Shown here in pieces: positions 19,115 through 55,500 of a DNA stretch of 64,000 bases. This stretch comes from Lophium mytilinum. Lineage: Eukaryota. The position numbers and the translations under genes are program-made. The stretch's first letter is position 1. Each line of letters begins with the position of its first letter. The notes beneath the pieces are model-generated. The model worked only from the letters and a program-made list of their open reading frames with translations. It was not told where the DNA came from and searched no databases. The stretch is from positions 310,001 through 374,000 of the forward strand of contig MU004200.1 in the NCBI GenBank assembly GCA_010093605.1, given 5' to 3'.

Positions 19115-19336
19115 TATTATAGTATAAACCTAAGATTATAATAATTATATACTAAGGTTACGTGCCGCCCCTTATATAACCTAAGTAAGACGCTAGCCTA
19201 AGGCGCTAGGCCGTAGCCTATGCGCCGGTGTTAAACTATAACCTCTTAAGAGCTCCTAGCTCTCTCTCTCCTTCTTAGCTTAGATTTTTATAATAGTTAA
19301 TATACCTTATTACTTATATTATATTAGCCCCCTATA
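19115..19336 (+). repeat. 3' LTR of Gypsy #2
   Basis: Direct repeat of 11602-11823. Confidence 0.95.
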
Positions 19337-25996: not shown

Positions 25997-27642
25997 ATGT
26001 CTGGAAACTTAGCGCCAGGCTTGGGAGAGCTCGCCAAACTCCCACTAGAGCTACGTTATATGATATACGAGTTCTTGGACGAGGACTTCTGTTGCCACAT
26101 CTCAGAACCCTTATCTCTCTTCCGAAGCTACCGCCATGACCCTTGTGTCCCCCTCGGGGTCTCACGCGTCAGCAAGACCATATGGGGCGAAGTCCAGCAA
26201 CTCTTCTACCAACGTACAAATCGAGATCTTCGAATTCGTATAGGCTATGACGGCTGGAAAGCAACATGCCACGCCCTGGGTTTCCGCTCTGACTGGAGCT
26301 CACCGTCTCTTGCCTCGTTCCAGCGCCTAATCCTCGAGATATCAGCACCCGCAGAAGATGATCCTGGCCAAGCTCTGCTCACCATCCGCAACATCTCCAA
26401 TTTTGTCACAGTCCTAAATGCTGCACCGAGTCTCCCTCCGACGATGATCTGCTTTGTCGATCCAACAAACAACACCACGGCTAGCTGGGAGTGCAAACAA
26501 TTCCACCGCTTTGCCTTTTTCCCCTCGTTCTTCGGCCCGCCCTTTCACACGCTTGCCTACAACGTCAGGAACCCCCTCTACTACAGTACGTAAAGTCCCG
26601 ATACGGACAAGGAGTTTCCAGCAGTCTTTTTGTTTGAAAAACTACTCGGGGAGTATTCCAAGACTACCACTGTTACGCCACTGCTTGGGGTACCCTAACA
26701 AAATTTCGAAGACTCAAGGGCGATGTCAAACTTTAAGCAGTGCAAATTAGACTGCCTCTTAACTGATTACCTGCTCAGCAGTCAGGCTACCCCAAACAGT
26801 GGTGTTGAGTAGGCAAATTAGACAGTGGTGTCTTGGAAGTCCCTAAAGGAGTGGCTTACACAGCATAAGCTGTTATCAATACCTGGTTTCTCACTCTGTG
26901 TCTGAAAGATTTGCTAACTTCATTGCCCCTTTAAGTGTCAGCCTGCGCCCTACTGCCACTCCAGCGCCCCCCATCATCCTCAGTCCATCTCCCCGAATAC
27001 CTAGGCGTCAGACAGCGCGACGACATGAACCCCCTCCTCACCCACTGGCCCCACTTTCCCAACCCAGAGTTCCCACACACCTCCACGCACTTTGGATCCC
27101 ACTCCAGCTCCGACCCGCACTTCACCACCGCCGCCGCCGCCGCCGCCGCCAAATCCCCAACCCGCCTCCACCTCCTCCTCACCATCAACGCCCTCGGCCT
27201 CAGCAAGACGCTCGACGACCTCCCCGGCCCCACAGCCGCCCGTCTGCGCGCCTCCCGCCGCCGCAACTGGCCCGCCTACGCCGCCTGGCTGGCCGGCATC
27301 CGTGCGCAGCTGCGCCAGTGCCGCCCGGGCATCGCGTTCCTCTCCACCGAGCTGGAGCCCGGCTACTCGTGGCGCGACGAGGTGGCCATGATGGACGACC
27401 GCGCGCGGCGGCGGTGCGAGGAGACGCGCGACGCCGACTGGTGGGCGGAGAAGCGGTGGCTGAGGGAGGACGAAGGGCCGAGGGGGTCTGTGGTCACGGG
27501 GGCGTGTGGGTGCGGGGGGTGTGTGGAGGAGATGGAGAGTGCCGCCGCGCGGGGGGAGGTGGTGTATACTGTTTCGGAGAAGGCGGCGGAGAGGCTGTTG
27601 AGGGGGTGGGAGAGGAGTTGGTGGAAGGAGAAGGGGGAGTGA
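25997..27642 (+). CDS. Hypothetical protein with F-box-like N-terminus (2 exons; long intron 26586-26941)
   Basis: MSGNLAPGLGELAKLPLELRYMIYE... The phase-1 donor GTACGT at 26586, branch GCTAAC at ~26913 and acceptor at 26935 or 26941 join the two ORFs in frame. Exon 2 has LDDLPGPTAARLR, a motif seen in fungal hypothetical proteins. Confidence 0.65.
26586..26941 (+). other. Long fold-back spliceosomal intron A (~350-356 nt)
   Basis: GT...GCTAAC...AG; nested inverted repeats 26656-26673/26822-26838 and 26675-26696/26784-26805. Confidence 0.7.
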
Positions 27643-27939
27643 GGTTGCACGTATGTGCATAGCGCTAGGGATGGAAGTCTGTGTGCCTTTGCTTAGGCGG
27701 CCCTTTGTTGCATGAATCTATTAGGAGTTCAGATATAACGGAAGCTTCAAGCCAATACTGATCAAGGCGGGTTCCAAACCCTTTCAAACTGACGTATTCT
27801 ACTATCTCGCCTAGGGTGACACAGTGTTGTGTCAGAATCGCGGAAGTACGGTTGGATCTAATAGCAAAATCACATGCACATATTCAGGCCGTAGTCATAT
27901 ACGCGTGGTCGCACGAAGGTGCTGGCATCTCCACTGCGT

Positions 27940-28310
27940 GCCCTCCATATCCAAGCAGAAAGTCCCACGTGATTGGATCCGGGACTCCTTCTTGAATTGA
28001 ATGATATGCCGACAGCGCGTTCCCCTCAACATATGGCGCAACGTCTGAAGAATATCTGAATGACGCGGTTCTATATGTAACTCTTTCTCCTTAAACTCGA
28101 CCGATACAACACCACGTCCCCCCTCAACCTCTGCCTCCGTGCCTGAGGAGTATTCGATTCATGTGGTTCGATATGTGATTATATCTTCTTAAAGTGACCG
28201 ATACAACCACGGCACGGGGCCCCTCGGCGTCATATCCAGCACCCAACTAAAAATGATATTCACGCGATTCGATCTGTTACTCTCTCTTCTTAAGCGACCG
28301 ATGGTCTACG
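27940..28310. repeat. Degenerate ~100-bp tandem repeat, 3-4 copies
   Basis: Recurring core ACGCGGTTCTATATGTAACTCT..CTTAAA..GACCGAT / ATGTGGTTCGATATGTGATT..CTTAAAGTGACCGAT / ACGCGATTCGATCTGTTACTCT..CTTAAGCGACCGAT. Confidence 0.65.
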
Positions 28311-28852
28311 GAAACGCCCTGGCATCCCTCGAGTCCGCCCGGGGCCCGGCGTCCACCTCCGGCGAACTAAACTGGCAAGTCTTGGCTGCCGAAGATGACC
28401 CTGAGGTGTTGATCACAGATGAACCCAATTTCGCCTCCATTCGAGACTCCGACCACGTTTTCGCACATAACTCCACAACCACAACTCGCAGTACAGAAAG
28501 AAAACCGGGTGCGCATGCGCCCCAGTCAGGATAACAGTTGGTGAGAATTTTGAGAATTGATTGCGTTGTTTCGTTGAAAAGGGGTGGGGTCGGCAAGGTG
28601 GGTGGGAAAAAAGTCGGCTCTGGCTACCAAAGACCGGCCGTGCGTGGCGTTTGAAGGACTCGAGGATACGTATAGTAAACAGGAACATATCTGATAGCCA
28701 CTCTTGGTCTCAAGATCATGAGTGCATTGCAAAAATTGCAAGTGGATATCATAAACAGAGAGCCTATCCACACCTACCCAAACAAAGCCTGATCAACCCA
28801 GTACGCCATCCAACGCTATGCTCCGACCACCTATGCAAAACGATCTACATGC

Positions 28853-31800
28853 TCACCACTCCAACGCTCCTCCTCCTCTGATAAAACTCTCCTCTCCATC
28901 CTTCTCCAGCAAGCCCACCACGCTCCCGACCCCGTCTCTCACCCTATCCGCCCTCGCCTTCTCTCTCAACCGCGTGTAAAACACCGGGCAATCCCGACTG
29001 TCACACCGCACCTCCTCTCCAAAGGACAGGCCCGCACAGCTCCGGCACACGTCCTCCACGCTCTGAACCCGCGTCTCCGCCCGATTAAGCCGCATCCTCA
29101 GCGCCAGCAGCGTCTGCGCCGGCTTAGCCTTACACGCCTCACACAGCGGCAGGAGCAACACGGGGCTCGGCTCTTCAGCGTGGTGCTGTTGCTGCGGAGG
29201 CAGAGGTGAGAGCTTCGTCCGACAGACCAAACACGCCGAGCTCTTCATATAATTCTCCAGCGTCTTCCGCATCCCCGCCGCACCGCCGCCCTGCGCATCC
29301 TCGTTCGCACCCACCACCACGCCCACGCTCCTGATCCGCTGCACCTTCGGCATCTCCTCATACCACAGCCGCACGTTCGCGCCGACCAGGTTGAAGATGC
29401 GCTCGAGCGGTGGGATCAGGTTCTTGGAGATGTAGTACTCAGCATCGAGCTCGAGCGCGTCGTCCGCAAGCAGCGCCTCGGGCGCAACACAGCGGTCGAT
29501 CAGCCGGGCCTGCGGCGCGCCCGTAACAACGACGTAGGGCACGCGCTCGCCGTACTGCGGCTCCAGGCGGGGGTCGGCGAGCATGCGCTTGGTGGCGATG
29601 AGCGCGCCGGGGGGCGGCGGGCCTTTGTCGCTGTACGTCCCCAGCTTGACCTCTTTGGCGAAGAGGAAGTCCTGGATGCTGACGCTGCCCGTCATGATCT
29701 TCGCACACTGGGATTGGAAGTATGACTTCACGGCGCTGAGGTCGGCGCTGCGGAAGAGGATCTTGAGGGCCTTCTCTTCGATTTTCTGCTCGGCGGGCGT
29801 GCCGTCGCGGCGGACGGTTTCGATGCCTTTGGCGTCGAAGTCGGGGGTGGTCTGCGTGCGAGACTCGTATTTGAAGCCGACGTAGCGCTTTTTGGCGAGG
29901 AGGACGCATGGGTGGTAGACTTTCTCGAATTTGAGCTTGACGGGCCGCGGGTTGGCGTTGGTGACGGCTTCTGCGATCTCCTCGCCGATGGCGAAGGCTT
30001 GGTCTCTTGTGCGCCCCTTGAGGTACACGAAGAGGGAGTCGGTGTCCCCATAGACTACCTCTGCGCCCCACCGGTCGACGGAGTGGATGAGCGCGATGGC
30101 CTTCTCGAGAATCTCGCGGCCGGTTTGCACGATGCTGTCGGCGATTTCGGAGCAGGGCATACGGCCGGAAAAAGAGGCGGAAGTGTAGCCGTAAGTGACA
30201 TTGGCGATAAGCTTTAGGGCTAATTGTCTGTTGTTCAGGAGCTGCTGTAGGGATTTGTCGCCCTTGTCTGCCTTCATGCCGCTCTTGACCATGACGCGCG
30301 TTTCTAGGATCTCGCCCAGCATCTTTGCAAGGAGTGATTTGCGCATCTCAGGCTTGACGTACATCATTCCATTCGGTGCTATGTTGATGTAGTCTTTGAT
30401 GAGTTCGAGCAGTCGAGGCTCGCGTTGGAAGTCCGCAAATCCCATTTTGTTTTGACCGCGCCAGCTGACAACCCGTCCTAAACAAGTCGAGTAGCAATAG
30501 TTATATGCGATCATAACACTAGGATAGAGTGACTGGAAATCAAGTACCAAGAGCGGGCTTGTGTAGAACGCGCTTTGAGGCTCCATGACTAATGGAAGAC
30601 ACTCCAAGGCATTCTGCTGGCCAACTTGCTTTCGACTCGGGGAAACGAGAATGAAGCTTTCGGGTTTGGCAATCCGGAACATGAGCGACTCGACCTTGAA
30701 TTGCGATCCGCGGGAGAAGACCGAGAAAAAGTCAACACCCAAGAGACGTGCTTGCTCGCTAGTTCGTGAGACAAGCTCATTGACTTCTAGTATTTCTAGA
30801 TTTAGCTGTACCCGAGATAAGAAGTAATCCAGAATTTTGGCCAAATCCCGAGGCCTGGAGCTTCTATACCATGATGTGAGGTCCCGGAAGGAGTAATGCG
30901 GTATTCGCTTGTGTAGAAGATGGAAGACGACGTTCTCCATAGTGTACTGGAGCAAGTTGAGCTCGCCGCGCATGGCTCTCCAAATGTTAATCATATGTCG
31001 GCCTGTGACCTTGATGGTCGAAGTATGAGTAAAGCCCCAGCGATCCGCGTCTTTACCAAATCGCCCATGAGACTGCGATTTCATCCGAGAGAACTCATCG
31101 CAGAGATCATACTCGTACTTCAGCCTTGCACGTTCTATCAAGTAGCCCCAGGAGCCATTGTGAACTTCGTAGCCGGTAAGGATGTCGGGATCGAACTCGC
31201 GGACGATATCAACCAATTTGTTGATAAGATCGAGTTCGTCTTCCTCGTATTCAACTTCCACAGAGACCTGCTTAGCTATCCGTTTCGCGATGCCATCCTC
31301 GTCAGATAGCGTGACGATACCAATGCGATCTCTGTTGTCGCCGGCATTGTCATCTGCATCAATGCACCAGAAAACGCACGAGATTTCATCCTCGTTTGGG
31401 TCTGGCGCCAAGGTGCCTCGATTGTTTACGTGGACTTCAAGGCTCATAATGCTCATGTATTGAGTCTCATGTTTGACACTTGCAGACTTCTTCTTCTGTG
31501 AGTACTTGAAGCCACCTTTGTTCTTCTGGGTAGGGCCCTCGATTTGTGAGAGCTTTTTAGAGGGACTCTTCACATCTGTGACTCTGTTTGCAGGGCTGCC
31601 TTTTGTGGAAGGTACTCGATCTTTCTTTTCCTGTTGAAGCCATGCTCCTACTTCTACCACCGATGGCGGGGCTGTGGCGAGTTCCCAGTTGCGTAATTTA
31701 CAGAATTTAGCCCTAGCCCGGCTGTCTTGCTCCTCTTTAGTTCTGTTCAGGACAATGGCAGGTTTCTCCCCGAAATTTGAGAGCGCGGTTCCAGTAGGAT

Positions 31801-33990
31801 CGAAAGCTGGTAGATAGGGTATAGTGGTGCTTTCTAATTTGAACTCACGACCTGCATACTCCCGAGACCGATCTGGCACGTCATTTTCATCGCTGTAAAA
31901 GGCATCTTGGTAGATGACTGATGGCATTCCATATTCTGACATCGTTGATAAAATTACGTCAGCAACAGGAGGTAGTCCGCCATAGTACAGCACGCGCGAC
32001 GACTTGCGGCAGTAACAAGATGTCCCCAACTGCGCAGCTAGGGTTGCCATCTCCGATGGTGGCAGCTTGCGATTCGTGGTGGTAACGGTCGATGGCGTCC
32101 TCTGGTGGCTCCATGGCGTTCGAGGCGAGTCTTCAGAAGAATTTGGCAGTGCTAACTTGGCCGCGGCAGTTCTCTTGGGTGTTTTCTGGGTATTTGAGTA
32201 TCCTTCTTGGCTTAGTCTCAAAAGGGTCCCTGAATCATGAGGGTTCTTGACGACAGGAAATGAAAGAGTCTTAGGGGTGGTGCCGCCTAGAGCCTTAATA
32301 CTCCCTTGCGACGACTGTGGCCCCCCTTCCTCGACACTCTTTTGGGAAGTTGAAACAGGCATGTCCGAGTTTCTGTTTTCACCTAGAGCATCTTGGAAAG
32401 TAACACGTCGGGTGGATCCAGTTCTGATAGCCACACCTCCTGATAACAAGTGGGCACTTTTGAGAGGGGTCTCTGGGGAGATTTTGAGCCTCTTATTTGG
32501 ATGTGTCGATGCGGGAGGCGATTCCCGCTTTTTACTCGACTCGTGAGAGCTGTCCGAGCGAAGCGCTGTATGAGCTCCGCTGGAAGTGACTGGATATAGG
32601 TCGCTATTGGCACTTGTCTCAGCCTCAGCACTTCCTTCATCTTCTAGGTCATCCTGCTCTTTATCATCAATATCATTTACTTCGTCGGCAGCTTTGAGAG
32701 AATCGTCTATTCCTCCAAGCTCAGGCTTTCTCTGGCCAAAGGCCGCTTCTGCTGCAATATCATCATTGACAAGATCATCAATGTCCTCAACAATTTCTTC
32801 GGGAAGATTGACGGCCCTCTGAAGGTTTTCAGGGAACAGATCTTCCACGCTTTCGATTGCTGTCTGAACAAGATCTTCTAGTCGCACAGGCTTCACGAAC
32901 TTGTCGAAGCTCATGTCCGCATCCGGTTTCTGCTCTTTTTCTCCGTGGATCAGTTCTTGAATCATTTCGTTGAACTCCTCCTCATGTATCCATCCGCCCT
33001 TGTCGGTGTTTCGAGGATCTGCGGAAACGGATACCAAGACCTCTGGTGGGAAAGGAGTACCCGAAGACTCGCTGAGTCCCATGCGCAATCTTCGACGGCG
33101 GGTTTCATCACGCCATAAACCAGCCATGGAGTGTACGAGCTTCTCATCAGGTTGCAAATGACGAAAACGCTCGATGAAGTCATGATGCTGCGGACGAGGT
33201 TCAATGTCTTTCCGGTTCAAGATATCCTGGACACAGATATCGACCTCAATTGAACAATGGCTTTGCCGCGGAAATCTGTCTTGGTCGGAGAAGAGGTGGC
33301 CAGGAATCGATTTGTCATGCCATTTGTGTCCCGAAGCTGTCGAATCTGAACAATCCGGGACAGGGCTGCGGAAAGTGACCTTTGAACAGTCGATATATGC
33401 ACATCCGTAAAGGTTGTAATCGCACATCCATTGGAGAAGATACTGCATGTGACTTTCGTGTGGCTGCAGAACCCTGTTCATGATAGCCCCTTGGTACAAC
33501 AGGTCCGCGAATCGCGTCATATGCATTGGATTGAGCATGTAAACCTTCAGATAGAACTTGTAGCCAACGTGATAGCCAAAGAACGGTACCCCCTTTACGA
33601 GGGTAATATGACCCACGTAAACTGAGCGTCCATCATACGCATTCCGGCGGTAGCTGACAGCAAGAGCATGATCAATCGAGTCACGGAGGGTATGGATATA
33701 TTCATTAACTACTTCAATTAGCACTTGAGAATCTATGCAATTAATTTACACTTACCGGCATCGTGTTCCAGATTGCCGTCGTATTGTAGGTAGAGGTATG
33801 GTAGGGCACCATGGATATGCGCGCAGACCTTTTGGCCAGTCTCTGTTGCGCCAAAAGCCCTGATTACGGGGACTTGGGGGCCATTCTGGCGCTGGGAAAG
33901 ACCTGTTCCGCGACGAAGTACAGGATCAAGCTCCGTTGGAGCAGACTGATAGTGGTCTATGCAATTGAGGCGGAAGCGGAAGGTGTCCAT
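28853..33990 (-). CDS. REV3: DNA polymerase zeta catalytic subunit (intron 33709-33755)
   Basis: Family-B motifs LDFQSLYPS, KLIANVTYGY and YGDTDS; C-terminal CysA/CysB; N-terminal FGATETGQKVCAHIHG. Confidence 0.97.
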
Positions 33991-34342
33991 TGATGGCCCG
34001 GCCGGTGGGGTGGAATTCGATGCTAGAAGTGATCCTCATGGTGATGATAAAGATACTATAAGCAACTGAGCCCCACAGCAGCGCCTGCTAAGCGTTGTCG
34101 CATTCACGGCGCGTCGTAGTGAATGATGAAAACAGAGCGTGGCGGGGAAGACGCGCCGGCCAGCCAAATCAGCCCTATGAAACTAGGCTAGCACCGAGTC
34201 TTCTCCGATCCATCCTTGCCTTTACTTAACCTCCACACCTCACTCTGCACCACTACTACTACCTTCGACAACACCACCTGCGACCAGGTCCCGAGACAGA
34301 CCACCGTGCTCTATCAGTCCCCGTCGCTAGAAAATCCCAACC

Positions 34343-35773
34343 ATGCCGCCTCCAGGCCCGCCGAAGAAGCCGGATGTATCTGCGGCCAACAAGGAGCGCA
34401 ACGAATACATCCCGTCCTTCATCTCGAAGAAGCCCTTTTATGTCGACGACGCCAGCGAGCCAACCAGCGATTACCTCGAGCATCAACGTCTACAGAAGCA
34501 GGAGCAGGACTCGAAATGGTACGACAGAGGTCGCAAACTACGTCCTGCGGCGACTAAGTTCCGCAAAGGCGCATGCGAGAACTGCGGCGCAATGACACAC
34601 AAGGCTAAGGACTGTCTAAGCCGGCCCCGGAAGCAAGGTGCTAAGTGGACTGGGAAGAATATCCAAGCAGATGAGATTGTGCAGGACGTGCAATTGGGGT
34701 GGGACGCTAAACGAGATCGATGGAATGGATACGACGCTGCGGAGTATAAAGCTGTGGTGGAAGAGTATAATGAGCTGGAAGATATGAAGAAACAGGTCAA
34801 GGCCGGCACAGATAGAGAGGGTCCGGACGACGAAGGCGAGGACGACGAGGGCGCAAAGTACGAGGCAGAGACCGATATGGGCAGGAAGCAAGCCACGTCG
34901 ACTCGAAATCTGCGGTTACGGGAAGACACTGCGAAGTATCTCCTCAACCTGGATCTTGACTCGGCCAAATACGACCCCAAAACGCGATCGATGATAGACA
35001 GTGGCGCCACGGCTGATCAAGCAGCGGCATTGGTCGCAGAGGAAGGTTTCATGAAGGCGTCTGGGGATGCGGCGGAGTTTGAAAAGGCATCGCGCTACGC
35101 ATGGGAAACTCAAGAACGGGGAGACAAGAACAAACTTCATCTGCAGGCCAATCCTACGTCCGGCGAGTACTTCCGCAAGAAGGAAGAACAAGCAGCAGAA
35201 GCACGACGACTGGCTCATCAAAAGGCGATACTGGACAAGTACGGCGGGCAGGAGCATCTACTAAATGCGCCTAAAGGGGCTGCGGTTGTGGAGAATGAAC
35301 GTTATGTCGAATACGACGAGCGGGGGCGAATCAAAGGGGCACCCATCGTCAAGGCGAAATCAAAATATCCAGAAGACGTTCTCATCAACAATCACACATC
35401 AGTCTGGGGCAGCTGGTGGTCAAACTTCAAGTGGGGCTATGCATGCTGTCATTCCATTGTCAAGAATAGCTATTGCACTGGCGAGGATGGCAAGAAAGCA
35501 TTTCAGGAGACTACCCGGCTACGGACTGGAACAGACTTGGACGAGGTCCCAAAAGCAGTTGCCTGGAAGGAGGAAGAAGCTAGAGAGGAGCATGTTCCGA
35601 ATGCTGTCGGCGACGACCGGAAAGCTAGGGCTGATACTGGTACCAGGAAGCGGACGTTGGAGGAGATGAAGGGCGGCATCACAGAGGAGGATATGGAAGA
35701 GTACAGACGGAAACGAGTAACGGCTGATGATCCTATGGCGGCGTACTTGAGCAAGGGTGGTGAAGTTCACTGA
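34343..35773 (+). CDS. SLU7: Pre-mRNA splicing factor Slu7
   Basis: [14 protein letters not shown], zinc knuckle [45 protein letters not shown]. Confidence 0.97.
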
Positions 35774-36432
35774 TTCGACAGGTCAAACTGCATTTACAAG
35801 GCGTTTGGGGTGAAAGCATTTTCAGGCGTTGATATCGTATATACCTGCACCGGATACTGCATAGCAAATGAAGCACTTCTCCTTTTGACCAGAACGCATC
35901 GAAACCCCTCAAGCGGCGTCAAGACTGTGTACCGAATTGACAACACATCAATGGCAAGGCGTCCTCAGGCACACATGACGGCATGAACTCTGCTGTATCG
36001 TGGGTGGGTGAAGACATGGGGGTGTTGCCAGCGCAAAGTCGCACATGCATAGCAGCCTCCCACGTAGCACCACCCGGCCCAATGGCGAAACAGCGGGGAG
36101 AACTGCGAGAGAGGCGTCCCCGGACTTGCAGAGTGCATGGCATACGAGCAGTCCGTGAACTGCGCAGTTGGTGTCGTGGCGGCGTTCGTCATCAACAGGG
36201 CTGAAGAATAGAATACGCAGCTCTGCTTGGCGTGGCCCGACTGGAGGCGTAACCTTGCAATGCAGGTGAGCTTCCCACTGCTCCGACATCAACGCCCCAG
36301 CTCCCCACGCACCCCAGCCTGCTCCCCTCTACTCTCTTAATAGTCTACACTACTGCTGGAAGCTTGCTTGACTTATTGAATCTACTTTGAAACCCCCCGC
36401 AAGCTCGTGAGCCACCGGCTTCTCCGCCAGCC

Positions 36433-39400
36433 ATGGCGCTCTACGGATCCTCGCGCAACGTTGATATGGGAAAGTCAGTGCTGAGCTGCTTCTTGTAACC
36501 TCTTCCTGAGCATTTGCTGACTCTGATTGAAGGCAGGAGTCGGAGCTCGCAATCAACATTCGCAAGGCAACAAGCATCGGTACCTATCCTCCGCCTCCAA
36601 GCAACACGACACGGCAGCCTGCTGATATAGTGAAACAGATGAGACCGCCCCAAAGCGTATGGATAGTACTTCAGGATATGGAGACGTGCAGATGCTCATT
36701 GTCGCGTAGGGAAACATGTTCGAAGCTGCATTGTGTACACGTGGGACCACAAGTCCTCGGCGTCGTTTTGGGCGGGCATGAAAGTGTAAGCGCCAAATGC
36801 ACTCAGACATAGCGAGCATCGCTGATTATGATGGTCATTTCTAGCCAACCTATCCTTGCCGACGAAGTCCAGACCTTCAAAGCTCTCATCACGATCCACA
36901 AAGTTCTTCAGGAGGGCCACCCCATCGCTCTCAAGGAGGCGCAAGCGCACGTGAACTGGCTGGAGAGCTTGAACAGAGGCGTTGCCGGTGGAGAGGGTCT
37001 ACGAGGTGCGCGGCAAAGAGACCTTGGCGTATACGACCATGTATAATGGAATCACGGCTTATGATATGAACAACAGGCTACGGACCACTCATCTCGGAGT
37101 ACATATACTTCCTCCTCGCCAAACTCGCGTTTCACCGCCAGCATCCGGAGTTCAACGGTAGGAGCAACAGATGACTAGTAAATCCGAGCTTTCTGACAAT
37201 CACCAGGAACTTTCGAATACGAAGAATATATAAGTCTGAAGTCAATCAACGACCCAAATGAAGGGTAAGCGGTGCCGTTACTCGTCAAAAACTCACGCTC
37301 ACTCTGGCAGTTATGAGACCATCTCCGACCTGATGACCCTTCAAGACCAGATTGACACTTTCCAAAAGCTCATCTTTTCCCACTTCCGCAGCGGCGCGAA
37401 CAACGAGTGCAGAATCTCTGCCCTTGTAGGTTTGGTACAAGAGAGCTACGGGATATATAAATTCATAACGAGCATGCTGAGAGCGATGCATACAAGTGAG
37501 CAGCTTTTTAATTTTATGAAATTGATAACAGCTACTAACCCTTACAGCTCTCGGCGACGATGAAGCGCTGTCACCTCTCCGTGGCCGCTACGATGCCCAG
37601 CATTACCGTCTAGTCAAGTTCTACTACGAGTGCTCTAACCTCAGATATCTGACCAGCTTGATAACGGTACCCAAACTGCCACAGGACCCGCCAAATCTAC
37701 TTTCCGAAGATGAGAATGCACCGGCCTTGCCTGTACGTCCAAGGAAGGAGGTAGAGGCGCCTACGCCGACGCCTCCAAGGGTTGCATCGGTGGATCCAGA
37801 GCCAATTAACGAGTTCTGGAAGAACGAGCAGAAGCGCCAACAGGATGAATACGCGGAAGAGCAGCGCAGACTCCAGGAGCAATGGGAGGCTGCACAGCAC
37901 CAGCAACAACAGCAAGCACTTCAAGCACAGCGGGATTTCGAAGAGCAACAGCGGTTGCAAGCTGAGCAACAGCGGCTCGCCCAGGAACAATTGATGCGCG
38001 AGCAGTACCAACAACAGACCCAGGGCCGCCTTGCTGAGTTAGAGAGAGAAAATCTAAATGCGCGTGCGCAGTACGAGCGCGACCAGCTGATGCTGCAGCA
38101 GTACGACGCAAGAATGAAGGGTCTAGAGGCCGAACTAGCGACACTGAACGCGAACTTCTCCCAACAGTCCCAATCTAGAGATGATCAAATCAGAGCATTG
38201 CAAGAACAGTTGAACACATGGCGCACCAAATACGAAGCATTAGCCAAGCTATACTCGCAACTACGACATGAGCATCTCCAATTGCTCCAGAAGTTCAAAA
38301 CTGTGCAGTTGAAGGCCAACTCTGCGCAAGAAGCAATGGACGCGCGAGAGAAACTTGCGCGTGAACTCAAGACGAAGAACTTGGAGCTTGCAGACATGAT
38401 TCGCGAACGAGACCGCGCTCTCCTTGAAAAAGACAGATTCACTGGTGGTCACAAGGAAGAGCTAGAAAAGTTGAAGCGCGAGCTTCGCTTTGCATTGGAG
38501 AAGGCCGACAACGCGGAACGTGGTAAAGGTACTGAGCTGTCCGCGATGCTGTCCAGGCACAACCGAGAGATTGCAGATCTCGAGGAGGCACTGAGGAACA
38601 AGACCCGTGCTCTAGATGAGGTACACATGAAGTATCGCGATGGCGACACTGACCTAGAAAGGTCATTGCGGGAGAAAGAAGACGAATTAGAAATTTTCAA
38701 AGCCGGCATGGACCAAACACTTCTAGAGCTGAACGAGCTCAAGCTGTCTCAACACGCAAACGACAATGCCATGGATGGGCAGTTGGACAGCTTCCTTCTA
38801 GACAGCATCCAGAAGATCAACGACATCATCGACTCGGTCCTCCAAAGTGGAGTGCAACGTGTGGATGACTCGTTGTACGAACTCGACTCTTCAATGCAAG
38901 CAGGAAACCAGAATGCCTCTGGACCATATGTGTTGTCGCAGATCGAGAAGGCTTCCTCGTGTGCCATGGAGTTCTCGACTGCCTTCAACAATTTCATTGC
39001 AGACGGACCCAACAGTACCCATTCCGAGATCATTCGAACCGTCAACGCGTTTTCCAGCTCAATAGCAGATGTTCTCACTAACACCAAAGGTCTAACCAGG
39101 TTCGCATCAGACGAGAACAAGGCGGATCAATTAGTCAATGCTGCCCGACTCTCAGCTAGCTCTACCGTCAAGTTCTTCCGCAACTTGCAATCTGTGCGTC
39201 TCTACGACATGGAGCCAGAGCAGAAGACCAACGTTGTGCTCAACAACAACAGTGAGGTACTGGTCAACCTCCAGAAGCTGTCCAAATTAGCGGATGCGTT
39301 CGCACCCAAGAGCAAGATTACCACAGCCCAAGGGGATATCGGCGAGCTGGTTGACAACGAGCTGGTCAATGCCGCCAAAGCCATCGATGCTGCCACCGAG

Positions 39401-44948: not shown

Positions 44949-46164
44949 TTAGTGCCCAGCCTGAGCCTGCGCACGGCGGCGGTCGCGCTCCTCGGCAATC
45001 GAGAGCTTGACACCCTTGCCCTTGGGCAGGCTGATCCATGGCTTCTCGCTGCCGATGATGAAGACGTTGCCTTCGCGGGTAGCAAACTCGTTGTCAACCG
45101 CGTCCTTGATGTGGACGATGTTGAAGCCTCCGTCGTGGCGTTCGCGATGGGTGACGACACCCACACGGCCCATGTTACGGCCACCAGTCCTGCCAATTCA
45201 GTTAGCATCGTTAAGTTGCCTCAGCTGGAAAGCACACTTACACCATGGCGATGACACCAGTGTCGAACTTGATGAAGTCCGTGATCTTGCCAGTGGCAAG
45301 ATCAATCTTGATCGTGTCGTTGACCTTGATCGCCGGGTCGGGGTACCGGATCCTGTGTACTGCGTTCAGTATGCCGTCTTCTTCTAAGCCAACGCCAAAG
45401 CTTGGTCCAACGTCTGAATGATGCTAAACTTACGTTCGTGCATCGTGCGTAACCAAGAATGGGATGCCGCCCTTTCCAAGCTGAACCCGCTTGACCTTGC
45501 CCAACTTGTATGCAGCCTGTCGAATATCAGTGACCTGTTGCCCCGTATGCTATATCCATAACTACGTACCTCCTCGGCCGTGATGCGGTGCACCGTGAAA
45601 CGGCCCTTGGTGTCGTAGACCAATCGGAAGCTCTCGCCAGTCTTCTCAATGGTGATCACGTCCATGAAGCCGGTGGGGTAGGTGGCATCGGTTCGGACCT
45701 TGCCGTCGACCTTGATGAGACGCTGCATAACGATGGCCTTGACCTCACGGCCGTTGAGCGCATACTTTAGGCTGAGGCGTTGTCAGAAGACCGTGTTCTA
45801 GAGCGAGGAGCGTGTTTCGAGTACTGACCGGTTGCGGAGGAAGACGATGAGCGGCATGCAGTCACGGAGCTTGTGGGGACCAGGTGAGGGTCGGGGAGCG
45901 TATGTGCCCGAGAGTTTGTCCAAGAGCCAATGCGAGGGCGCGCTGAGGCGCTTCTGGTGCTTCTTTCTGTGTAGAGAATCTTGTCAGTCCCAATTTTACC
46001 AAGCAGTGCTAAAGTATAGGCATGAAATTGGTGAGAGCCCCCAGCGTCGAAGAGATCCTGAGATTCGGTCCTTCGAAGATCTCCGTGAAATCTGGTCGAG
46101 GGCTGTCGCGGAAGAAGTTGCGTCGCTTGAGAAGAGAATCTAATACTTACGGTCCTCTACCCAT
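44949..46164 (-). CDS. RPS4: 40S ribosomal protein S4 (eS4; multi-exon)
   Basis: [69 protein letters not shown]. Confidence 0.97.
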
Positions 46165-46899
46165 GATTGCGATTTAATCAGAGGCGATGGTGGAGGAGGG
46201 TCGAAGTTGGCTGGGGCTGAAGTTCGGTCGTCAAAGTGCGCAAAATGGATTTCGTGGGCCCGCATCAATGGTCGGCCCGGTTAGCGTCGATAACTTGCAC
46301 GTGACTTGACACAGCATTTTATGCTTCAATTTTGGGTCAGCAAGTCTCCTTATCACTAACAAAATAACCTCTATGTGTCTGAGGGCGCATAGACAGAGGC
46401 TACATATAGCGTTTCAAATCCTTGAATTGGCTTGGTAGTGTTGTCACATGAAAAGTTAAAAGTAGCTTCTAATCATGAGCATGTAGCCTGTGGTATCTCA
46501 TATCAAAAGAAATACCAGTTTAAAAAGACTGAATACGATCAGAGGAACAGCCCATGCCTGGAGGAAAGCTATTAATTCCTGTTCTATGAAATAGTCATCT
46601 TCAAGCCCCTTCTCCCGATCTCTATGACCATGAGATGAGACGATGCTTTGAAAGCACAGGCATGGTTCCACTACTTCCATCCACATTTGTACTTATGCTC
46701 TAGTGTACCTTAAAAACGGGCTGGTATCTCTTAAGGTTTGGAAGCTGAGTGGTGGAAAAGATAGAAGAGATCCAGCAGTCCCTGGACCGGACATGCGTAG
46801 AAGGAAGGGCAATATCAGTCCGCAGCTTTTGAAGTCTCTTTAGATTGGTATCGAAGTCTATTAAGAACTTTTGAACACTGTACCGCTTCATGCAACGAC

Positions 46900-48181
46900 T
46901 CATGCATACCCTTTTAATACAGCCGCCTCGGCATTCAATATCGACGACCCGGCTGCTCCGATAACAGCTAGAAGCACTATTAGCACGACACGAAACCAAT
47001 CCGGATGGGGGAACCTACTATTGTGGCTCAACGCAACAAACTTGATATCAAAAATCCCGCTCTCGTCCTCCCTAATCCTCCCCACACTCACAGCATACCC
47101 CCTATCCGTCTCCCTATCCAGCCGCGGCTGCGGCCTATCCGCCTCCTCCATAACCACAATCGCATTCTTCGGCGCGGACGGACACCCCAGAGTCTGAGCC
47201 TCCGAGACATACTCCCGCATCGCCTGCTTAACCTCCTCCGCACTCGGCGGGGGCCTCTTCGCAAACCGCAGCGACACACACGCCGTATGCCCATCGAGCA
47301 CGGCCACGCGATTACACGCCGCCGAGATCTTCATCGGCTGGTCCACAAACCCCGTCACATCCGCGTTCGTGCCGCCCAAGATCTTCTGCGCCTCCGACTC
47401 CAGCTTGTCCTCCTCGCCCGAGATGAAGGGCACCACATTGTCTATGATATCCATGCTGCTGACGCCCGGGTAGCCAGCGCCGGATACCGCCTGCATGGTG
47501 ACGACGCTGACCTGGTCGACGGGGCCGAATTTGGACTGCAGCGCGGCGAAGGGGATCACGATGCCGATGACGGCGCAGTTGCTGTTGCAGACTAAGAAGC
47601 CCTTCTGCAGGCTGTGCTGCTTGCGTTGGTGCTTGATGACGTCGAGGTGGGGGAGGTTGACGGTGGGGACGACGAGGGGGACGAGGGGGTCGCGGCGGTA
47701 GTTTTTGGCGTTTGAGAAGACGGCGAACTCGGCTTTTAGGAAGGCCATTTCTAGGGTAGGGGTGTAAGTAGCCTTGATATGCGAGGGATATACTTGTTTT
47801 TAGAGTGAGACACGCACCTACGTCCCCAGCTACATCGCTATCTAGACCAGAGAAGACGAGGTCGCAGTCCTTGAACTCCTCCGGTGTGCATTTCTTCACT
47901 ACTAACTCGCCAATTTGCGCTGTGAATGGAAGAGCTTGCTTCCACTTGACGGCATCTCGGTATTTCTTCCCCGCGGACCGTTCGCTCGCGCCTACTGCGT
48001 GGAGGACGAAGTGTGGGTGGAGAGCGAGCAGTAGGATGAAGCGCTGTCCTACTGACCCCGTTGCGCCGAGTACGCCTAGTCGATGGTCAGGGTAGGTACT
48101 ATGAATGCAATGCTGTCACTGACCGCACTTCTTCTTCGGGAATCCAGGGCTCTTGTTAGAGAGGAATTGTTCTGCCTGCAT
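46900..48181 (-). CDS. HOM2: Aspartate-semialdehyde dehydrogenase (multi-exon)
   Basis: [32 protein letters not shown] active site, [27 protein letters not shown]. Confidence 0.96.
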
Positions 48182-48197
48182 GTTTGCGTGTGGATGT

Positions 48198-48204
48198 TGA
48201 GTCA
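48198..48204 (-). promoter_or_regulatory. Possible Gcn4/CpcA element (TGACTCA) just upstream of HOM2
   Basis: Perfect heptamer ~17 bp from the ATG, with near-matches at ~48252 and ~48328. It fits cross-pathway control of an amino-acid gene but may lie in the 5' UTR. Confidence 0.4.
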
Positions 48205-48488
48205 ACGCGCTTGGGATCTTTTTACTTATGAGAGCACGGTTGCGATTGCGGGGAGTCAAAATAAATACGGTATGCTGCATGTTCAGCCACACAAATGGGT
48301 CACCGAATGGATAATTTTCAAAGCCCGAGACTCATCGTCGGCCTGCAGGATACCCGATTATTCATTCGTGACATGATGCCTAATGTCGTGTCGCGCCGAA
48401 ACGGCGTTTGGCCGGTCTATGCAAGAAATGACAGAGGCCTCCCAATGCATGTGAAGTGAGATATACTCCGTGCTACCCTTCCAACCGA

Positions 48489-50666
48489 CTACGAACTCGG
48501 CAGATCAATGATCTTGCCAGGGTTCATGAGCCAGTGAGGATCCAATGCTCCTTTGATCTTCTGCATAACTCCAATAGTGTCCAGCCCGAGTTCTTTAAGC
48601 AGAGAATCTTTCTTGCCAAGCCCGATGCCGTGCTCCCCTGTGCACGTCCCATCCATTTCCAAAGCTCGATCCACCATGTCGTGGATGCACTTCTCGACCG
48701 CAGCTCGCTCCCTGGGGTTCTTGCTGTCGTAAAGAATGCTCTCGTGGAAGTTGCCGTCTCCAATGTGGCCAAGAATGCTGGCGAATAATCCCAGGTCATC
48801 CATTTCTTTCTTTGATATCTCTGCCGTCTGGTTAGTACATGCTGGTGCTTAGTGAGGACACTGCGTACCGATGATATCAGGCAGTCTTGACAGAGGTACT
48901 GCAACGTCTGTGGACCACACTTCTAGACCTTCAGTGCGCAGTGCAAGCATGCTCCAAAGTGACTCTTTCCGAGCAGACCAAAGGGTCTTCTGCTCCGCAG
49001 CATCGATTGCAAACTCGAAGTCACCGCTTTTGTGCATCTTTGCGATTGTTTTGACCATTGCCGTATTCTCTTGGACCTGAAAGATGGAAATTAGCATATT
49101 ATGAAATGAGCTCCTCAAAGGGAATGCGCAGCTGCTTACTCCTGCTTTCGTTCCAGAGAACCTGCGATTGAGTATCAGATTCATGCTCAGATGCCAGCAG
49201 AGGAGTGCTCTTACTTGAAAAACATTGTAGGAACTTCTTTCCACTTCTTCGGAGTAGACCCTGAGCGATTGATTACTCCCATCTGGACCTCGTCCATGAT
49301 CTCCATGGCAGCGACAGGGATGCCTGCGCGCATGACCTTTGAAGCTGCGGCTGCCGCATCGCGGATAGTAGGGAATGTGACGACTGCAACACTGGTTTCT
49401 TGAGGAATAACTGTGAGTTTGAGAGTGATCTCAGTGACGAGCCCCAATGTCCCTTCAGAGCCTATGAAAAGGTTCGTCAAGTTGTAGCCCGCTGAAGACT
49501 TTCTGAAAAGGGGTTAGTCGACAAATCTTGCTGCAGGCTGGTCTGTGGCGTACCTTGGACGGCGCCGTGTTTTTATGATGGTGCCATCTGCTAGAACGAC
49601 CGTGAGGTTGACGACCCAATCTTTCATGGTGCCATAACGAACAGCATTGGTGCCGCTGCAGGTATTCAAGACATGTCAGAACACGTCATGCTTCACAGAT
49701 AGGGTTGACCGGAGACCAACCTGCAGCTTGTGCCCACCATCCCGCCTATTCTGGCCTGAGACGCATTAACACGTGGACCGGGATACTCTATGTGGCGGTT
49801 CCGCGCCACATGCAAGCGTTACTTACAGATGGACCAGGGTCGACAGGAAAAAACAGTCCCGAGTCTTTTATCTGCTCGTTCAAACTCATCCAAGGCACCG
49901 AGGGCTGAACGACGACATCCATACTGACATATGCACGTCAGCTGCGACGTCCACGTAGCGATCTGCAGGTAAATCTCGCTTACTCGTCGGCGTGCAACGT
50001 GATGATCTTGTCCATGAATGTGAAATCGATACTCATACCTCCAAAAGGGGCCGAAAAGTTAGCCTCCAGACTAGATCCTCCCGAGTAGGGAACTAGGCCT
50101 CTATTTAGCGCAATCGTAGTAGCACGATGATCGGGACATACTCATAGGCACACGATATTTGTGGCATGTCTTGGCGATTTGGGCTACCTCTTCTGTAGAC
50201 TTGGGATAAGCAACTGCAACTGGAAGTTGGTCGATATTGATCGAAGACCACTCTGAATAGCCATGCAACAGGAGGTCTTCATCGTCGGTGCTGATGGCAT
50301 CGGACCCCAGTGTATACTTCAGTTCCTGGATAGCCTGGACACATGATCAGCATGAAAAGAAAGAATTGAGCCTCGCCTAAACTCTGTCCACACCTTTTCC
50401 ATGTCGGTCTTGTTCGCATAGCTGGGCTTGCGGAAATTGGCCCATGACAGCTTGAAGTGCGAGCTGGCGTCGTTGACGCCGTACAGATAGGTGAGTGATG
50501 CCGTGAATGCCGTGAACAGGAGCACTCGGCCAGAGGTCCAGGGCGATCTCTGGCCGGCAATGGGCTTGCCTGCTTTCTGGGCAGCGGTTGACTGGTGGCG
50601 AACAGCACCCCGCGCCAACAGTGGAGTGGCAGATAGCCTCGACAGAGGCCTCACGATGCGGAACAT
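48489..50666 (-). CDS. DLD1: Mitochondrial D-lactate dehydrogenase (cytochrome), FAD-linked oxidase (multi-exon)
   Basis: Presequence-like [82 protein letters not shown]. Confidence 0.93.
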
Positions 50667-52541
50667 GGTGGAGGGGGAGGTCAAGTGGGAAAGGAATGAT
50701 CCTCGGGCTTCGACAAAATGAGCGGGATGGGACTTGGGTTTCGGCTTTTACAGGCCATCAGGGTCTGGGACGCGCGAAGTCCACGAGAGTCGGTTTGATG
50801 GGAACGGCACCGCCAGCGGCCCGTTGAGACATTTTGTAGGCGGATGAGGGACCCACGAGGCGAGCGGGGAGGGAGCAACTAGCTGGCTTTTGAGTCTAAA
50901 CGCAGTTGGCGCGCAGGCCTGGGCAGAGGTGGTCGCCTCGAGGAACGGGACAGCTCACGGCCAGGGGCGATGTCGCCCGTCTCATCTGGCGGGTGCTGGC
51001 ACGAGAGCGGGCCAGTGAAGGGGCTGCAGGCTGAGGGCCCTTTGCACCGCGTTGTGTCCGGCGGCGTGTCGACATGCAGCAATTGGCAAGGGAAAAAGGC
51101 TGCATGATCAGCTGCAGGGGCGGGCACGACGAGCGTTGTCCCACGGCATCGAGGCCAGGCGGTGCAGCGTGCCGAAGCTGGCAAAAGAAACTGCGGGGAA
51201 GCATGTATGTACGAGGTATCGTGGGTTGAGAGGCAGCTTGCGTCCGTGCCGAGTCGCCGTCGAGTACGAGGCCACCGACGATAGGTAAACACCAGGCCAG
51301 ATTACGGTATAGAAATGGTAAACTGGCAGTCCCATTGGGCCGTACCAGCATTTGCAGGGATTGGACGTTACCATTGCAGAAATTCACTATCCATCGGACG
51401 TGGTCACGGTCTCGAGTACTGACATAGGGGAAGCCTGTCGAGAGTGGGAGGATGAGGCGCGATGCATGTATCGTCACATCGGCTGGCAGTGCTGGGACGC
51501 GCAGCAAGGCCCACGGCGCCCGTCATACGTACCTAACTCCAGGCCGACTGGTTCCTGGCCGATGTCGCGTGCCAGCAGCTGAGGCGCTGCAGCACACTCC
51601 GAATCCACGTCGGCGGTCCTCCCAGCGCGCATGTGCGGGTTTCCGTGGGCGCCCTCGAAAGCATCGCATTGCCGCTTTGGGCCAGATCTGAGGCTCGGCC
51701 GTGCAGCCGATCCCGTGTTCCAAGATTCGGGACGAGATCGTGAAGATGGAGAATATCCACAGCTAACGGCACAGCAAGCACCGCGTCCACAGAACCTAGC
51801 CATAACGACTTGCGAAATTGCTGCGACTGAACCGCCGCATCCTGCTCCTCTGGCTCCACTCCTTCGTGACATCCGCTGACGCAGTGCAGCAGCATGAGCG
51901 GTGAGCGTGTGGTCGTATCGCCTGTCTAATCGTATCTCCCGCAATTGGACGCAGCGAGATACAATTACCCTTCAGAAACAAAAGCGCCTGTGCTCGCTCG
52001 TACGGGAGCCATGGCCGTGTGGGGTGCTTGCATCCCGCACTGCTATCAGGCTCCCTGGAGCGAAAAGTGGCAGTCCACGAATCCGATGTCTGGTTTGAGA
52101 CATTCGATCCGTGAGATACACGCTCTTTCTGTGCTTGTGTCCGCTTGCCCGCCACTGCTCGTTCGTCGTCAGCTATTGAGAACTGTGGAATCAATCTGGC
52201 ACGTCTGATAGCGCTCTGGGCCATCCCGTCGGTATTGGACTGCCACTTTAAGTTCTTGGGACCTGCAGGTGGCGACGAAGTACCCCAGAGCCACGCCTCC
52301 ACGTCTGCTGAATACTTCCGCCGGAGCCTCGTGCGGTGAGGGGGAAATCCCGCAACCCTGCTGTTCTAGATGAATGGCATTGCCGAGCATTGGCGAGCTT
52401 GAGAGGTAGGAGGTAGGAGGTAGTGAATGCCTAAGGCATTCACACTCCGTTGCCCGGCAACCTCAATGGCGGCGATGACTTCTCCAGCAGGCGCGCTCTC
52501 GCACAGCACTCCGCATTTCTACGACGCACCACCGCATCATC

Positions 52542-55500
52542 ATGTCGGAAACCCACCGGCGGCTGTCGCGCGAGCTCTCCCGCATTCTTTCGTGCCCCTA
52601 CCCGGCCTCCCTCAAGGTAAGCTCACCGATCAGGACAATATGCAAGCCCCTGGGCTCCAGGACACATGATCGCCTTTCCTGCAAGTCATCAGCGCTGACG
52701 CGAACGGCATGCAGAGGCTCAATGACATCCTAGCCGACGCAGACGGACCGGCTGCGGCCACGGCTTGGATAGACCAGCACCCGTGTCAGGTTGCGAGGCT
52801 TTGCTCCGTGACGACCACCGCATTGCCTCTCTGGCCATACAGCCTGAAGATCCTGCAATGCTTATGTACGTGATCGCTTCAATTCCCATGTCTGGCGGGC
52901 CTGTCGATCCACCAGCATCATGGAGCTAATCGCCACCTGCCAGGTCACGCCGCCGCTTTTAGAAAACATTTGCTCCATCAGGAGCCTTGCATGCTAGACG
53001 ACCTCCTCACAAAGGCCAACGCGTCGCTGCATGGCTTTCACGAGGTAAGCTGAATTTTCTTTGAAAACGAGTAAAAGACCGAGCCTCGTATCTTGAGGTT
53101 TGAGGCAACCAACTACAGTGCCTCGTCGTAGAAATCTGTACACTTTGCTGCCACTGCATGTGGTACCCCAGACAGTGGCGGAGATGTGTACACATGCTGG
53201 GCGTCTTGATTGTCGTCGTGGGCGCCCATCAATTCGTGAAAGCACTACGCACTAACTGGAAAGTGTATGGATATCTTTGACGAGGCACTGTATATTTTCT
53301 CCTCTCATTCTGTGCGTTGGCATGAATTTGCAAATGCGGCTCTTTCGAAGCCATTTTTTGTCAGCCTTGGAAGCTTATTTCAGCCACGCAGTATTCCCTG
53401 ATATGTGTGCTTTTTCTCTCCGAGCCGCTTCCAGACTCGATCCCACTGCCAGCAGCCGCACAGTCTTTTTTCCTGCGCGTTTTCGACGAGGCTTCACAGA
53501 CACCATGCGTCACTACGCTGGCCCCTGTCTACACTATGCTAAAGGGGGCATGCCGTGATCTGATAGGCCTTCTATCGCAGAGCTCTAGAGACGACTTCGA
53601 CCAACAGATCTGCCGCATACTGGCCTCCAAGTCTGCCCAGAAAGACTCTATGCTTCTCCTCTGGTGTCTTGGAATTGCTGTACTCGCCGAAGGCATACCA
53701 GTGGCCTCGAGACGGCATGATTCGAACGCTAGATTGCAAGATGTTTCACCAATTATGAACACTTCTGAAGAGTGCACAGAAATCAGATGGAACTCTGCAG
53801 CCGCTCGGAGGCTATTCGGCTCCGTCAAAGCTATGACAAAGACTACGACCACGACTGTGCTCAGTGTCATCTGGGCATGCAAGAGCAGTTGCGGGGGCGG
53901 TGTCACAGATGCGGAGGCGGCTGAAGGCGTTCAAATCGCGATTCGAACTCTGCAATCCGTGGAAGTCGATGTTCGGCACGAATGGTCACACAGCAGCACC
54001 CTCGCAAAGTCAATGTTATCGAAGTTGGAAGAAAAGTCCCTTTCCCCGGAGATTCACCCGTTAGTGCAGCTTGAGGTAAGACATCTTTACGTATACTGTG
54101 GCACACTTAGCTAATAGATCCAGGCGTTCGGATTCCTGGGTACACTCTTGGGCCAAGAAAATATTCCGGCAGAAATTGTTGCCCAGTACAACAGAATCTT
54201 GAACTACTTTTTACTGAAGCCGTTAGCGACGACACGAGTGGGGCTATCTTTATCTGTCTCCATCCCAATATTTGCAGTAAGACCCCCCGAGCCCTTTTTA
54301 CTAGAAATGCTAATAGATAATAGCATCGATTGGATGACAATGCAACGAGAAAGTTGTTCCAAGATTTGCTAAATGCTTCGACCGAGATTATCTCCGCAGA
54401 GACGCTAGAGGTATATCGCGCATTGACATCGCAGCTGACTGCCGCTATGCCCGCTTGTGCTGCACTACGAAAGGGCATCCTGCTCAACATTTCGTCAAGT
54501 GGCATGCAAGACTCTCTCAACTCTTTGTTGGGCGACGCGATCCCTCCCGACGATGTCTTAGACCACAACATCGAAGATATCTGCAAGAGCCATGCCATTG
54601 CTTCCAAACGCGCGCTGGCCTCGGCTTTACTGAATATGATCCTCACTGCTACACTGACGGCCAGGGGAGACGAACCTAGAGTGCCAACGAAGATAGCAAT
54701 TTCTTTGCTTGAGATGCAAAATCGCATCACCCGTCCATCGGATACGTGTCCTCTAACAATCAGGACACCCCAACCTCGATCAAAACTTTCCGTGTTCGAG
54801 CAGAGTTGCACTCCTCGAGCTTTGACAAATCAACAGGATTGGAGGGATCGGTTAGCTCTCGATCTTCAACAACAATCCGCCCATCAGAGAGACATGATCG
54901 TCCACACTGTGGCACAAGTTTGCCAGCAGCTGGAGGAACGGTGCGACCATGTCGAAGAGCCTCTCAGAGAAGAGCGGCGTAAAGTTGAAGAGCTCGAAGC
55001 CGAAGTAACGAAGTTGAGGGAGCTCGCATCAGCGCTAGAGTCTGAGGCGATCGATCGCAAATTAGTGGTTGATGGCCTTGAAGGAGAACGCATGCAGTGG
55101 GAGCGAGACTTACAACAGGCGGAATCTCGGAATGACGACCTTTCAAAGGAGTTCTCGACCTCCCTGGAAGACATGCGGCAAAAGCTCGAGGAAACTGAAA
55201 GAGAGGCGCACCAAATGCGTGCTGATTTCGAGGCGCGGGAGAATCAACTGCGCGCCGGCCTTCTCTCTACCGAGGAGATCTTACAGCATCGCACTGGTCA
55301 GGCTGATTACCTCGAAACTCAGATGAAACAGTTGCAAGCCGATCTAGAATGCCAAACTACCGAGTTGGAGCGATTTAGACAAACGGATGAGTCTCTCGCA
55401 GCAGAGGTTGATGGCCTCCATGCAGCCTTAAAGCTGGCACGTCAGGACGGATCTCAGAAGACGAATCAGATTGCTGATCTTGTCGCCAAAGAAGGTGAGA

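Follow-up and report, generated by a model that had tools for sequence, protein, structure and literature searches.

What is the origin of two long introns that interrupt unrelated genes of the fungus Lophium mytilinum? The introns lie in a 64,000-nt stretch of its genome (the window; all coordinates are positions in it), one in gene A and the other in gene B. A first-pass annotation of this DNA had described them as two introns of ~350 nt among otherwise short ones, and this holds: both have GT..AG ends, and their 356 and 347 nt compare with 98, 78, ~41, 49 and 49 nt for the other introns of gene B. We find it very likely that the two descend from a common sequence in at least a 16-nt core, and we tentatively favor an origin from one family of introner-like elements (ILEs). 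The two introns are as follows.

26586 to 26941, + strand: intron A, a probable U2-type intron, 356 nt, phase 1, with donor GTACGT, CTAAC at 26914-26918 and acceptor TGTCAG; from the sequence, open reading frames (ORFs) and a homologue
53045 to 53391, + strand: intron B, 347 nt, phase 0, U2-type, with donor GTAAGC; from RNA contigs and colinear orthologues

The core shared by introns A and B

The best-conserved part of the likeness between A and B is the core GCCACTGCTTGGGGTA. With up to three mismatches allowed, it has four matches on the two strands of the 64 kb, all of them within the two introns; 0.42 were expected, and none of 100 shuffles gave four or more. The matches form inverted pairs, 26677-26692(+) with 26788-26803(-) and 53150-53165(+) with 53164-53179(-). 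Between A and B the core is a 16-mer with two mismatches, and in each intron it lies near the centre of a palindrome.

26677 to 26692, + strand: left arm of the core in A, GCCACTGCTTGGGGTA
26788 to 26804, + strand: right arm of the core in A, TACCCCAAACAGTGGTG
53150 to 53179, no strand assigned: core of B, whose arms (53150-53165 and 53164-53179) overlap by 2 nt (TA) at the GGTACC centre

The central stem with the same C·A mismatch in both introns, as claimed in the first-pass annotation, is indeed present. Compared pair by pair, 13 of its 16 positions are identical between A and B, and a C in the left arm opposite an A in the right arm is common to both. This shared asymmetry of the arms would be best explained by inheritance from one asymmetric ancestor. 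The three differing positions change from G·T to G-C, from T-A to A·G and from G-C to T·C. None of these changes is compensatory, and two of them destroy the pair in B. The top of the B stem cannot form, because the arms overlap by the TA of GGTACC, and the minimum free energy (MFE) fold of B pairs the left core arm elsewhere. Such decay is that of a DNA palindrome and not of a selected RNA helix.

These observations bear on the idea that the hairpin core is a selected RNA module, such as a splicing aid, a Dicer substrate or small-RNA precursor, or a protein-binding stem. The first-pass annotation had likewise suggested a regulatory, catalytic or small-RNA-precursor RNA. Such a role would fit the position of the core, close to the apex of a highly stable hairpin in A as in B, and its standing as the best-conserved part. 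It fits poorly with three differing pairs of which none is compensated, and with a B stem that is broken in two pairs, blocked at its top and mispaired in the MFE fold. Nor did known families lend it support: Rfam covariance models gave no match in the window at the gathering threshold and nothing usable at E values up to 10, the best sub-threshold matches reaching 21.4 of 97 bits and 17.6 of 44 bits, and no box C/D or H/ACA pattern was seen by eye in the introns. We therefore regard a selected RNA module as improbable. A tRNA or short interspersed element (SINE) origin was also considered and rejected, the window containing no tRNA genes.

How far does the likeness extend? The best BLAST match between A and B covers 29 nt at 83% identity (E value 0.003), and the best local alignment, 29 nt around the left core arm, has a score that 3 of 500 shuffles reach. 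A colinear chain over the whole introns, made up of the 5' block, the left and right core arms and GG(T/C)GTCTTG, scores 34.6. This value was reached by none of 300 shuffles, by none of 472 real segments of the window aligned with A and by 3 of 472 aligned with B; taken as a chain, the colinear likeness reported earlier exceeds shuffled controls. The flanking blocks are listed below.

26628 to 26640, + strand: 5' block of A, TTTTGTTTGAAAA; borderline, possibly chance
53055 to 53067, + strand: 5' block of B, TTTTCTTTGAAAA; borderline, possibly chance
26889 to 26941, + strand: 3' blocks of A, TCTCACTCTGTG (26889-26900), ATTTGCTAA (26909-26917) and TGTCAG (26936-26941)
53303 to 53364, + strand: 3' blocks of B, TCTCATTCTGTG (53303-53314), ATTTGCAAA (53326-53334) and TGTCAG (53359-53364)

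The 5' block, TTTT(G/C)TTTGAAAA, is borderline, its score being reached by 6 of 500 shuffles and, in a stricter test, by 47 of 1000. Singly, the 3' blocks are not significant (57 of 500 shuffles), but as a colinear chain of TCTCA(C/T)TCTGTG, ATTTGC(T/A)AA and TGTCAG at similar spacing they score as only 4 of 1000 shuffles and 3 of 1660 real 99-nt segments do, the latter controls being mostly non-intron segments. In A, two of the 3' blocks coincide with the branch-site region and the acceptor. Because the likeness carries on past the palindromes on the 3' side, the shared unit exceeds the palindrome and takes up most of each intron. Aligned globally with MAFFT, A and B, and likewise their 3' parts, gave nothing informative, since the blocks slip. 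A direct repeat at the borders of B (CACGAG/GT ... CACGCAG/), found by eye, needs an indel and is half splice consensus; it was not used.

Two unrelated long introns that each happened to hold a palindrome might be expected to match only in short blocks, as A and B do, and an unrelated neighbouring region also scores marginally against shuffles (4-32 of 200). Coincidence would nevertheless have to put a 16-mer with two mismatches at the centre of both palindromes and nowhere in the remaining 63 kb, give both stems the same arm asymmetry and raise the chain score beyond that of nearly all real segments. We consider this very improbable. Common descent is very likely for at least the core, and we infer it for the sequence beyond.

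Fold-back palindromes and the location of structure

Both introns had been described as long fold-backs, and both are indeed unusually stable. Intron A folds at -113.8 kcal/mol (z score -3.96) and intron B at -128.5 kcal/mol (z score -6.94), each more stable than all 100 of its dinucleotide shuffles. This structure is nevertheless confined to an inner palindrome in each.

26642 to 26854, no strand assigned: fold-back A, a 213-nt imperfect palindrome with two CCACTG sub-repeats per arm
26693 to 26787, no strand assigned: centre of A, 95 nt between the core arms, not in B, bounded by GGTACC and GCTACC (from the sequence and arm alignment)
53114 to 53292, no strand assigned: fold-back B, a 179-nt imperfect palindrome with ends TA/CAGTGCCTCGTCG ... 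CGACGAGGCACTG/TA

For fold-back A the MFE is -85.8 kcal/mol against a shuffle mean of -57.6 (z score -6.92), and for fold-back B it is -87.5 against -54.8 (z score -8.66); in neither case was any of 100 shuffles as stable. The arms of A share 46 identical positions between a 55-nt left arm and a 71-nt reverse-complemented right arm. B has 44-nt arms that are 77% complementary, with perfect pairing of the terminal 15 bp. The left arm of B can pair with two alternative partners, one forming 31-nt arms that adjoin directly (0 nt apart) and the other being the outer arm, which seems to point to a partial internal duplication. Loss of the sequence between two GGTACC-like copies would convert a centre such as that of A into the type seen in B.

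The palindromes lie 56-69 nt inside the donors and 87-99 nt inside the acceptors. Once they are removed, the remaining 143 nt of A fold at a z score of -0.15 and the remaining 168 nt of B at -0.28. The 5' and 3' flanks of the introns do not pair with each other beyond chance, the flank duplex being matched by 21 of 200 shuffles for A and 63 of 200 for B. Excess structure is found only in the inner palindromes, and therefore the introns are not end-to-end fold-backs; the outer helices earlier said to pair reduce to the outer arms of these palindromes, which do pair. Between A and B those outer arms are unrelated (836 of 1000 shuffles reach the score, and the arm alignment agrees), which argues against the palindrome itself being a mobile unit with conserved termini.

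Fold-backs of this kind invite another explanation, namely that two small fold-back DNA transposons, resembling miniature inverted-repeat transposable elements (MITEs) with Tc1/mariner-type ends, landed independently in older introns and were tolerated because they are spliced out. Tc1-like elements typically have termini of the type TA/CAGTG...CACTG/TA and make TA duplications. B reads TA/CAGTG...CACTG/TA, with its 15-bp perfect terminal pairing at the ends of 44-nt arms, and both palindromes are non-coding, ~180-210 nt long and discrete, carrying all of the excess structure between flanks that fold like shuffles. Their distances from the donors and acceptors are unlike those of elements that create their own splice sites, and the spacing between splice sites and shared blocks varies. 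A third fold-back, of ~220 nt (52046-52267; 26-nt arms, 81% complementary; z score -5.04, with none of 200 shuffles as stable), lies 5' of gene B outside known introns; it is not demonstrably related to the other two. On the other side of the balance, the termini, which a transposase would be expected to conserve, are unrelated between A and B, whereas the centre and the 3' flank are related. Fold-back A is flanked by TA on the left and TG on the right and so shows no clean TA duplication, and the TA flanks of B may be two further bases of the palindrome, because TA is self-complementary. Both copies, furthermore, are intronic and in sense, none is intergenic in the 64 kb, and no other copies or parent element are known. 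Taken together, we hold independent transposon insertion to be doubtful, if a serious contender.

Splicing of the introns and their host genes

Intron B is proven to be a real, ordinary spliceosomal intron. Run X3 carried the label RNA only as a guess; its contig was taken as spliced RNA because three canonical GT..AG introns are missing from it. Over 52500-54000, this single 4704-nt contig joins 52614/52713, 52865/52944 and 53042/53390, all GT..AG, and the last joint leaves out 347 nt, placed at 53045-53391 given a 2-nt ambiguity. In run X7 (coded organism C), whose contigs have 95-99% likeness to the window, a contig of 259 nt has both the 78-nt and the 347-nt joint, the latter GT..AG. Run X10 gave no coverage of intron B, from which we draw no conclusion. 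Three proteins, P0001 as annotated and its orthologues P0002 and P0003 (Dothidotthia), are colinear across 53044/53392; in P0003, residue 109 ends at 53044 and residue 110 begins at 53392. The predicted junctions are thus borne out for B by two runs; the deposited model of gene A does not annotate intron A.

Several observations concern gene B itself. A close relative or other strain, the source of run X7, expresses the gene with the same spliced junctions. The TGTCAG at 53359-53364 is a possible in-frame alternative acceptor, 27 nt 5' of the acceptor, that would add nine codons (PWKLISATQ); the assembled RNA contigs splice at 53391 only. On the 5' side, the X3 contig reaches 521 nt beyond 52500, and the third fold-back lies ~280 nt 5' of the start codon. 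The other introns are short: those of 98 and 78 nt are RNA-verified, and the gaps of ~41, 49 and 49 nt come from a protein-to-DNA map. The exon 3' of intron B encodes a protein 100% identical to the hypothetical protein BU16DRAFT_215948 of L. mytilinum (P0001), an uncharacterised coiled-coil protein of 1102 aa. The next-best match (83% identity) is from Mytilinidion resinicola (P0002), in a search that gave seven proteins with E ≤ 0.001 among 6536 candidates.

Intron A is probably also a spliceosomal intron. The upstream ORF ends two codons inside it, at TAA 26589-26591, and it is at this very stop that the 262-aa protein P0008, deposited at NCBI and encoded on the same contig as P0001, terminates. 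Splicing is nevertheless predicted because the 444-aa protein P0010 of Lepidopterella palustris, the best homologue that has a name, aligns with the sequence on either side, in the frame re-established by splicing. Its residues 1-169 match 25997-26509 (E value 4e-49) and its residues 281-400 match 27178-27543 (E value 1.4e-24), and by coordinate arithmetic the removal of 26586-26941 brings the second match into frame with the first. The two matches are separated by 668 nt; less 356, this leaves 104 codons, against 110 residues of P0010. CTAAC lies 23 nt 5' of the acceptor CAG.

Gene A (25805-27642) hence seems to be mis-annotated as a truncated protein of 262 aa that ends within intron A. In M. 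resinicola only the downstream half of the gene is annotated, as a protein of its own (P0019, 138 aa), which begins with the Met equivalent to 27025 and shows an apparent frame change. Either gene prediction failed at the long intron in both genera or gene A is truly split. We take gene A to be a 2EXR-like orphan gene, a label to which Pfam adds no match; for the exons flanking both introns, Pfam gave no match above threshold.

Two further features of the window may be mentioned. A block of ~18 kb at 2001-20000 is AT-rich (27-31% GC, against 50-59% elsewhere) and full of AT-rich inverted repeats; it looks like repeat DNA degraded by repeat-induced point mutation, adjoining the gene-rich part. 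On the - strand, 28853-33745 is a single open frame of 1630 aa that by eye resembles a family-B DNA polymerase and is a candidate zeta-type catalytic subunit.

Copy number, known elements and the origin of the introns

The first-pass annotation had expected many copies genome-wide, an expectation that the assembly of a genome run (X1) did not bear out for B. When its 129,617 contig records were compared with 52500-54000 at 80% likeness, one was placed, the locus's own 4945-nt contig, which runs unbroken through intron B. Intron B has no near-identical or moderately similar copy in this assembly. BLAST searches of A and B against both strands of the whole window likewise found no further copy, the rest being two 13-nt chance matches. 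The two copies are thus both within introns, oriented in sense with their genes. A raw MFE scan of 21-64 kb, which was not normalised, picked only GC-rich coding stretches. Two metagenome scans were also made with the core palindrome. The first gave no match, and the seven loci of the second were dismissed as unrelated perfect palindromes in GC-rich contigs, without flanking similarity. The third fold-back was rejected as a family member, its likeness to A and B being marginal (4-32 of 200 shuffles).

We take the host order to be Mytilinidiales, within the Dothideomycetes, from which introner-like elements were reportedly described by van der Burgt et al. in 2012. ILEs are spliceosomal introns found in numerous, nearly identical copies, which decay fast and soon cannot be distinguished from regular introns (Collemare et al. 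2015, PMC4457414), and they are symmetric and longer than regular introns (PMC4457414, PMC8469720). As far as these descriptions go, A and B resemble ILEs: they are canonical spliceosomal introns in unrelated genes, in sense, long, with a stable predicted fold and internal symmetry, and their lineage is one where ILEs are known. Spliceosomal removal is seen in contigs for B and predicted for A from the frame and P0010, and length and stable folding are evident in both, with the structure confined to the inner 179-213 nt. However, ILE families comprise many near-identical copies, whereas we have two that share short blocks only; at the 80% likeness of the X1 placement no further copies of B appeared, and diverged ones are possible. 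The symmetry of A and B is moreover internal and, unlike that of ILEs, does not reach the splice sites. Of the proposal of a diverged ILE-type family, common descent and a plausible introner-like origin thus stand, and the multi-copy feature does not.

For L. mytilinum (GCA_010093605.1), the consulted part of a published introner catalogue gives one family, Fam2, with four copies and class unknown, and for its sister genus, in M. resinicola, one family with five copies (Gozashti et al. 2025, PMC12130899). Fam2 elements occupy positions 32-221 (~190 nt), with splice positions 23 and 224 and a 3-bp duplication, and their host genes are BU16DRAFT 555116, 526374, 489440 and 595420 (PMC12130899). 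Fam2 is thus from the same species, and its length is close to that of our 179-213-nt fold-backs. In Fam2 the splice sites are only 9 and 3 nt away from the ends of the element, against 56-99 nt in A and B; the family may or may not be related to them. Gene B (215948) is not among the four listed Fam2 genes, and intron A is not an annotated intron. A full-text literature search found no paper that pairs Lophium mytilinum with introner.

A parallel to the relation between A and B comes from the internally symmetrical sister (stw)introns of Hypoxylaceae, in which a short palindrome is framed by inverted repeats of 45-55 nt (Fekete et al. 2021, PMC8469720). In the long forms ~100 nt separate two palindrome copies, and in the cropped forms the arms overlap at one copy (PMC8469720). 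From that account, long and cropped forms stand in the same relation as A, with its 95-nt centre, and B, whose arms abut at GGTACC. These (stw)introns, like A and B, belong to no Rfam family, and their own published record reports no similarity to known ILE families. Their terminal inverted repeats, by contrast, include the splice sites, and they come in tens of similar copies, many as nested twin introns, features not shown for A and B; our palindromes are internal, and the intron ends do not pair beyond chance. Hypoxylaceae belong to the Sordariomycetes, another class than the host.

Given these comparisons, our preferred reading, which we rate a little short of an even chance, is that A and B are two old, decayed relics of one family of introner-like (fold-back) elements that make up the introns, as opposed to elements that landed in older ones. 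An introner-like origin is favored because the shared unit spans most of the intron and because the copies are intronic and in sense, with none intergenic in the 64 kb; it is favored also because the conserved part is not the palindrome termini and because the lineage has introners. Membership of A and B in an ILE family is unproven.

Several points weigh against this reading. The likeness of the 5' block is borderline (47 of 1000 shuffles), and that of the 3' blocks may be inflated by general signals of intron 3' ends. Splice-site offsets from the shared blocks vary, at 42 versus 10 nt on the 5' side and 0 versus 27 nt on the 3' side. The ends of B resemble those of a cut-and-paste DNA transposon and stand 69 and 99 nt inside the splice sites, and the third fold-back, of similar size, sits outside any known intron. 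No second copy of B at least 80% alike was found in X1, in a placement that also missed A, so that relatives retaining only the core would be invisible to it. The argument from location and orientation draws on two copies only, and the predicted splicing of A draws on frame and homologue, with a deposited model that ends inside it.

Under the introner-like reading, most of each ~350-nt intron would consist of a single decayed copy of an intron-borne element that is symmetric and non-coding. The unit common to both would run from about the T-rich 5' block to TGTCAG(CCT), a length of ~317 nt in A and ~313 nt in B. Its heart would be the palindrome around the GGTACC centre, of which A would have kept the 95-nt centre, whereas in B the arms abut, as they would after a deletion. 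The RNA hairpin would be a side effect of the palindromic DNA. All it is likely to do, passively and in every reading, is loop out ~180-210 nt and so present the spliceosome with an effective intron of ~140-170 nt. We infer both the mobility of the element and this looping-out, the latter from structured long introns in yeasts.

A more speculative version, which we think unlikely, is that A and B are survivors of a second and older Mytilinidiales introner family, distinct from Fam2. Its elements would have been symmetric and ~315 nt long, with a GGTACC-centred core that was needed for propagation and hence outlasted the rest. B might then be nested, with an element from a GTAAAA donor-like site near 53071 to the TGTCAG at 53359-53364 lying inside a regular intron of ~53 nt.

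A and B are not a new RNA class, and two diverged copies add little to what is known of ILEs; each is probably a decayed member of an already known kind of element, and in that sense a new instance. The long intron A seems to have split the gene model here and apparently also in the sister genus. If the introner-like reading is true, the two introns would be worn-down examples of how fungal genes gain long symmetric introns, in an order, Mytilinidiales, with one small catalogued family, and would reveal the part of such an element that survives decay longest.

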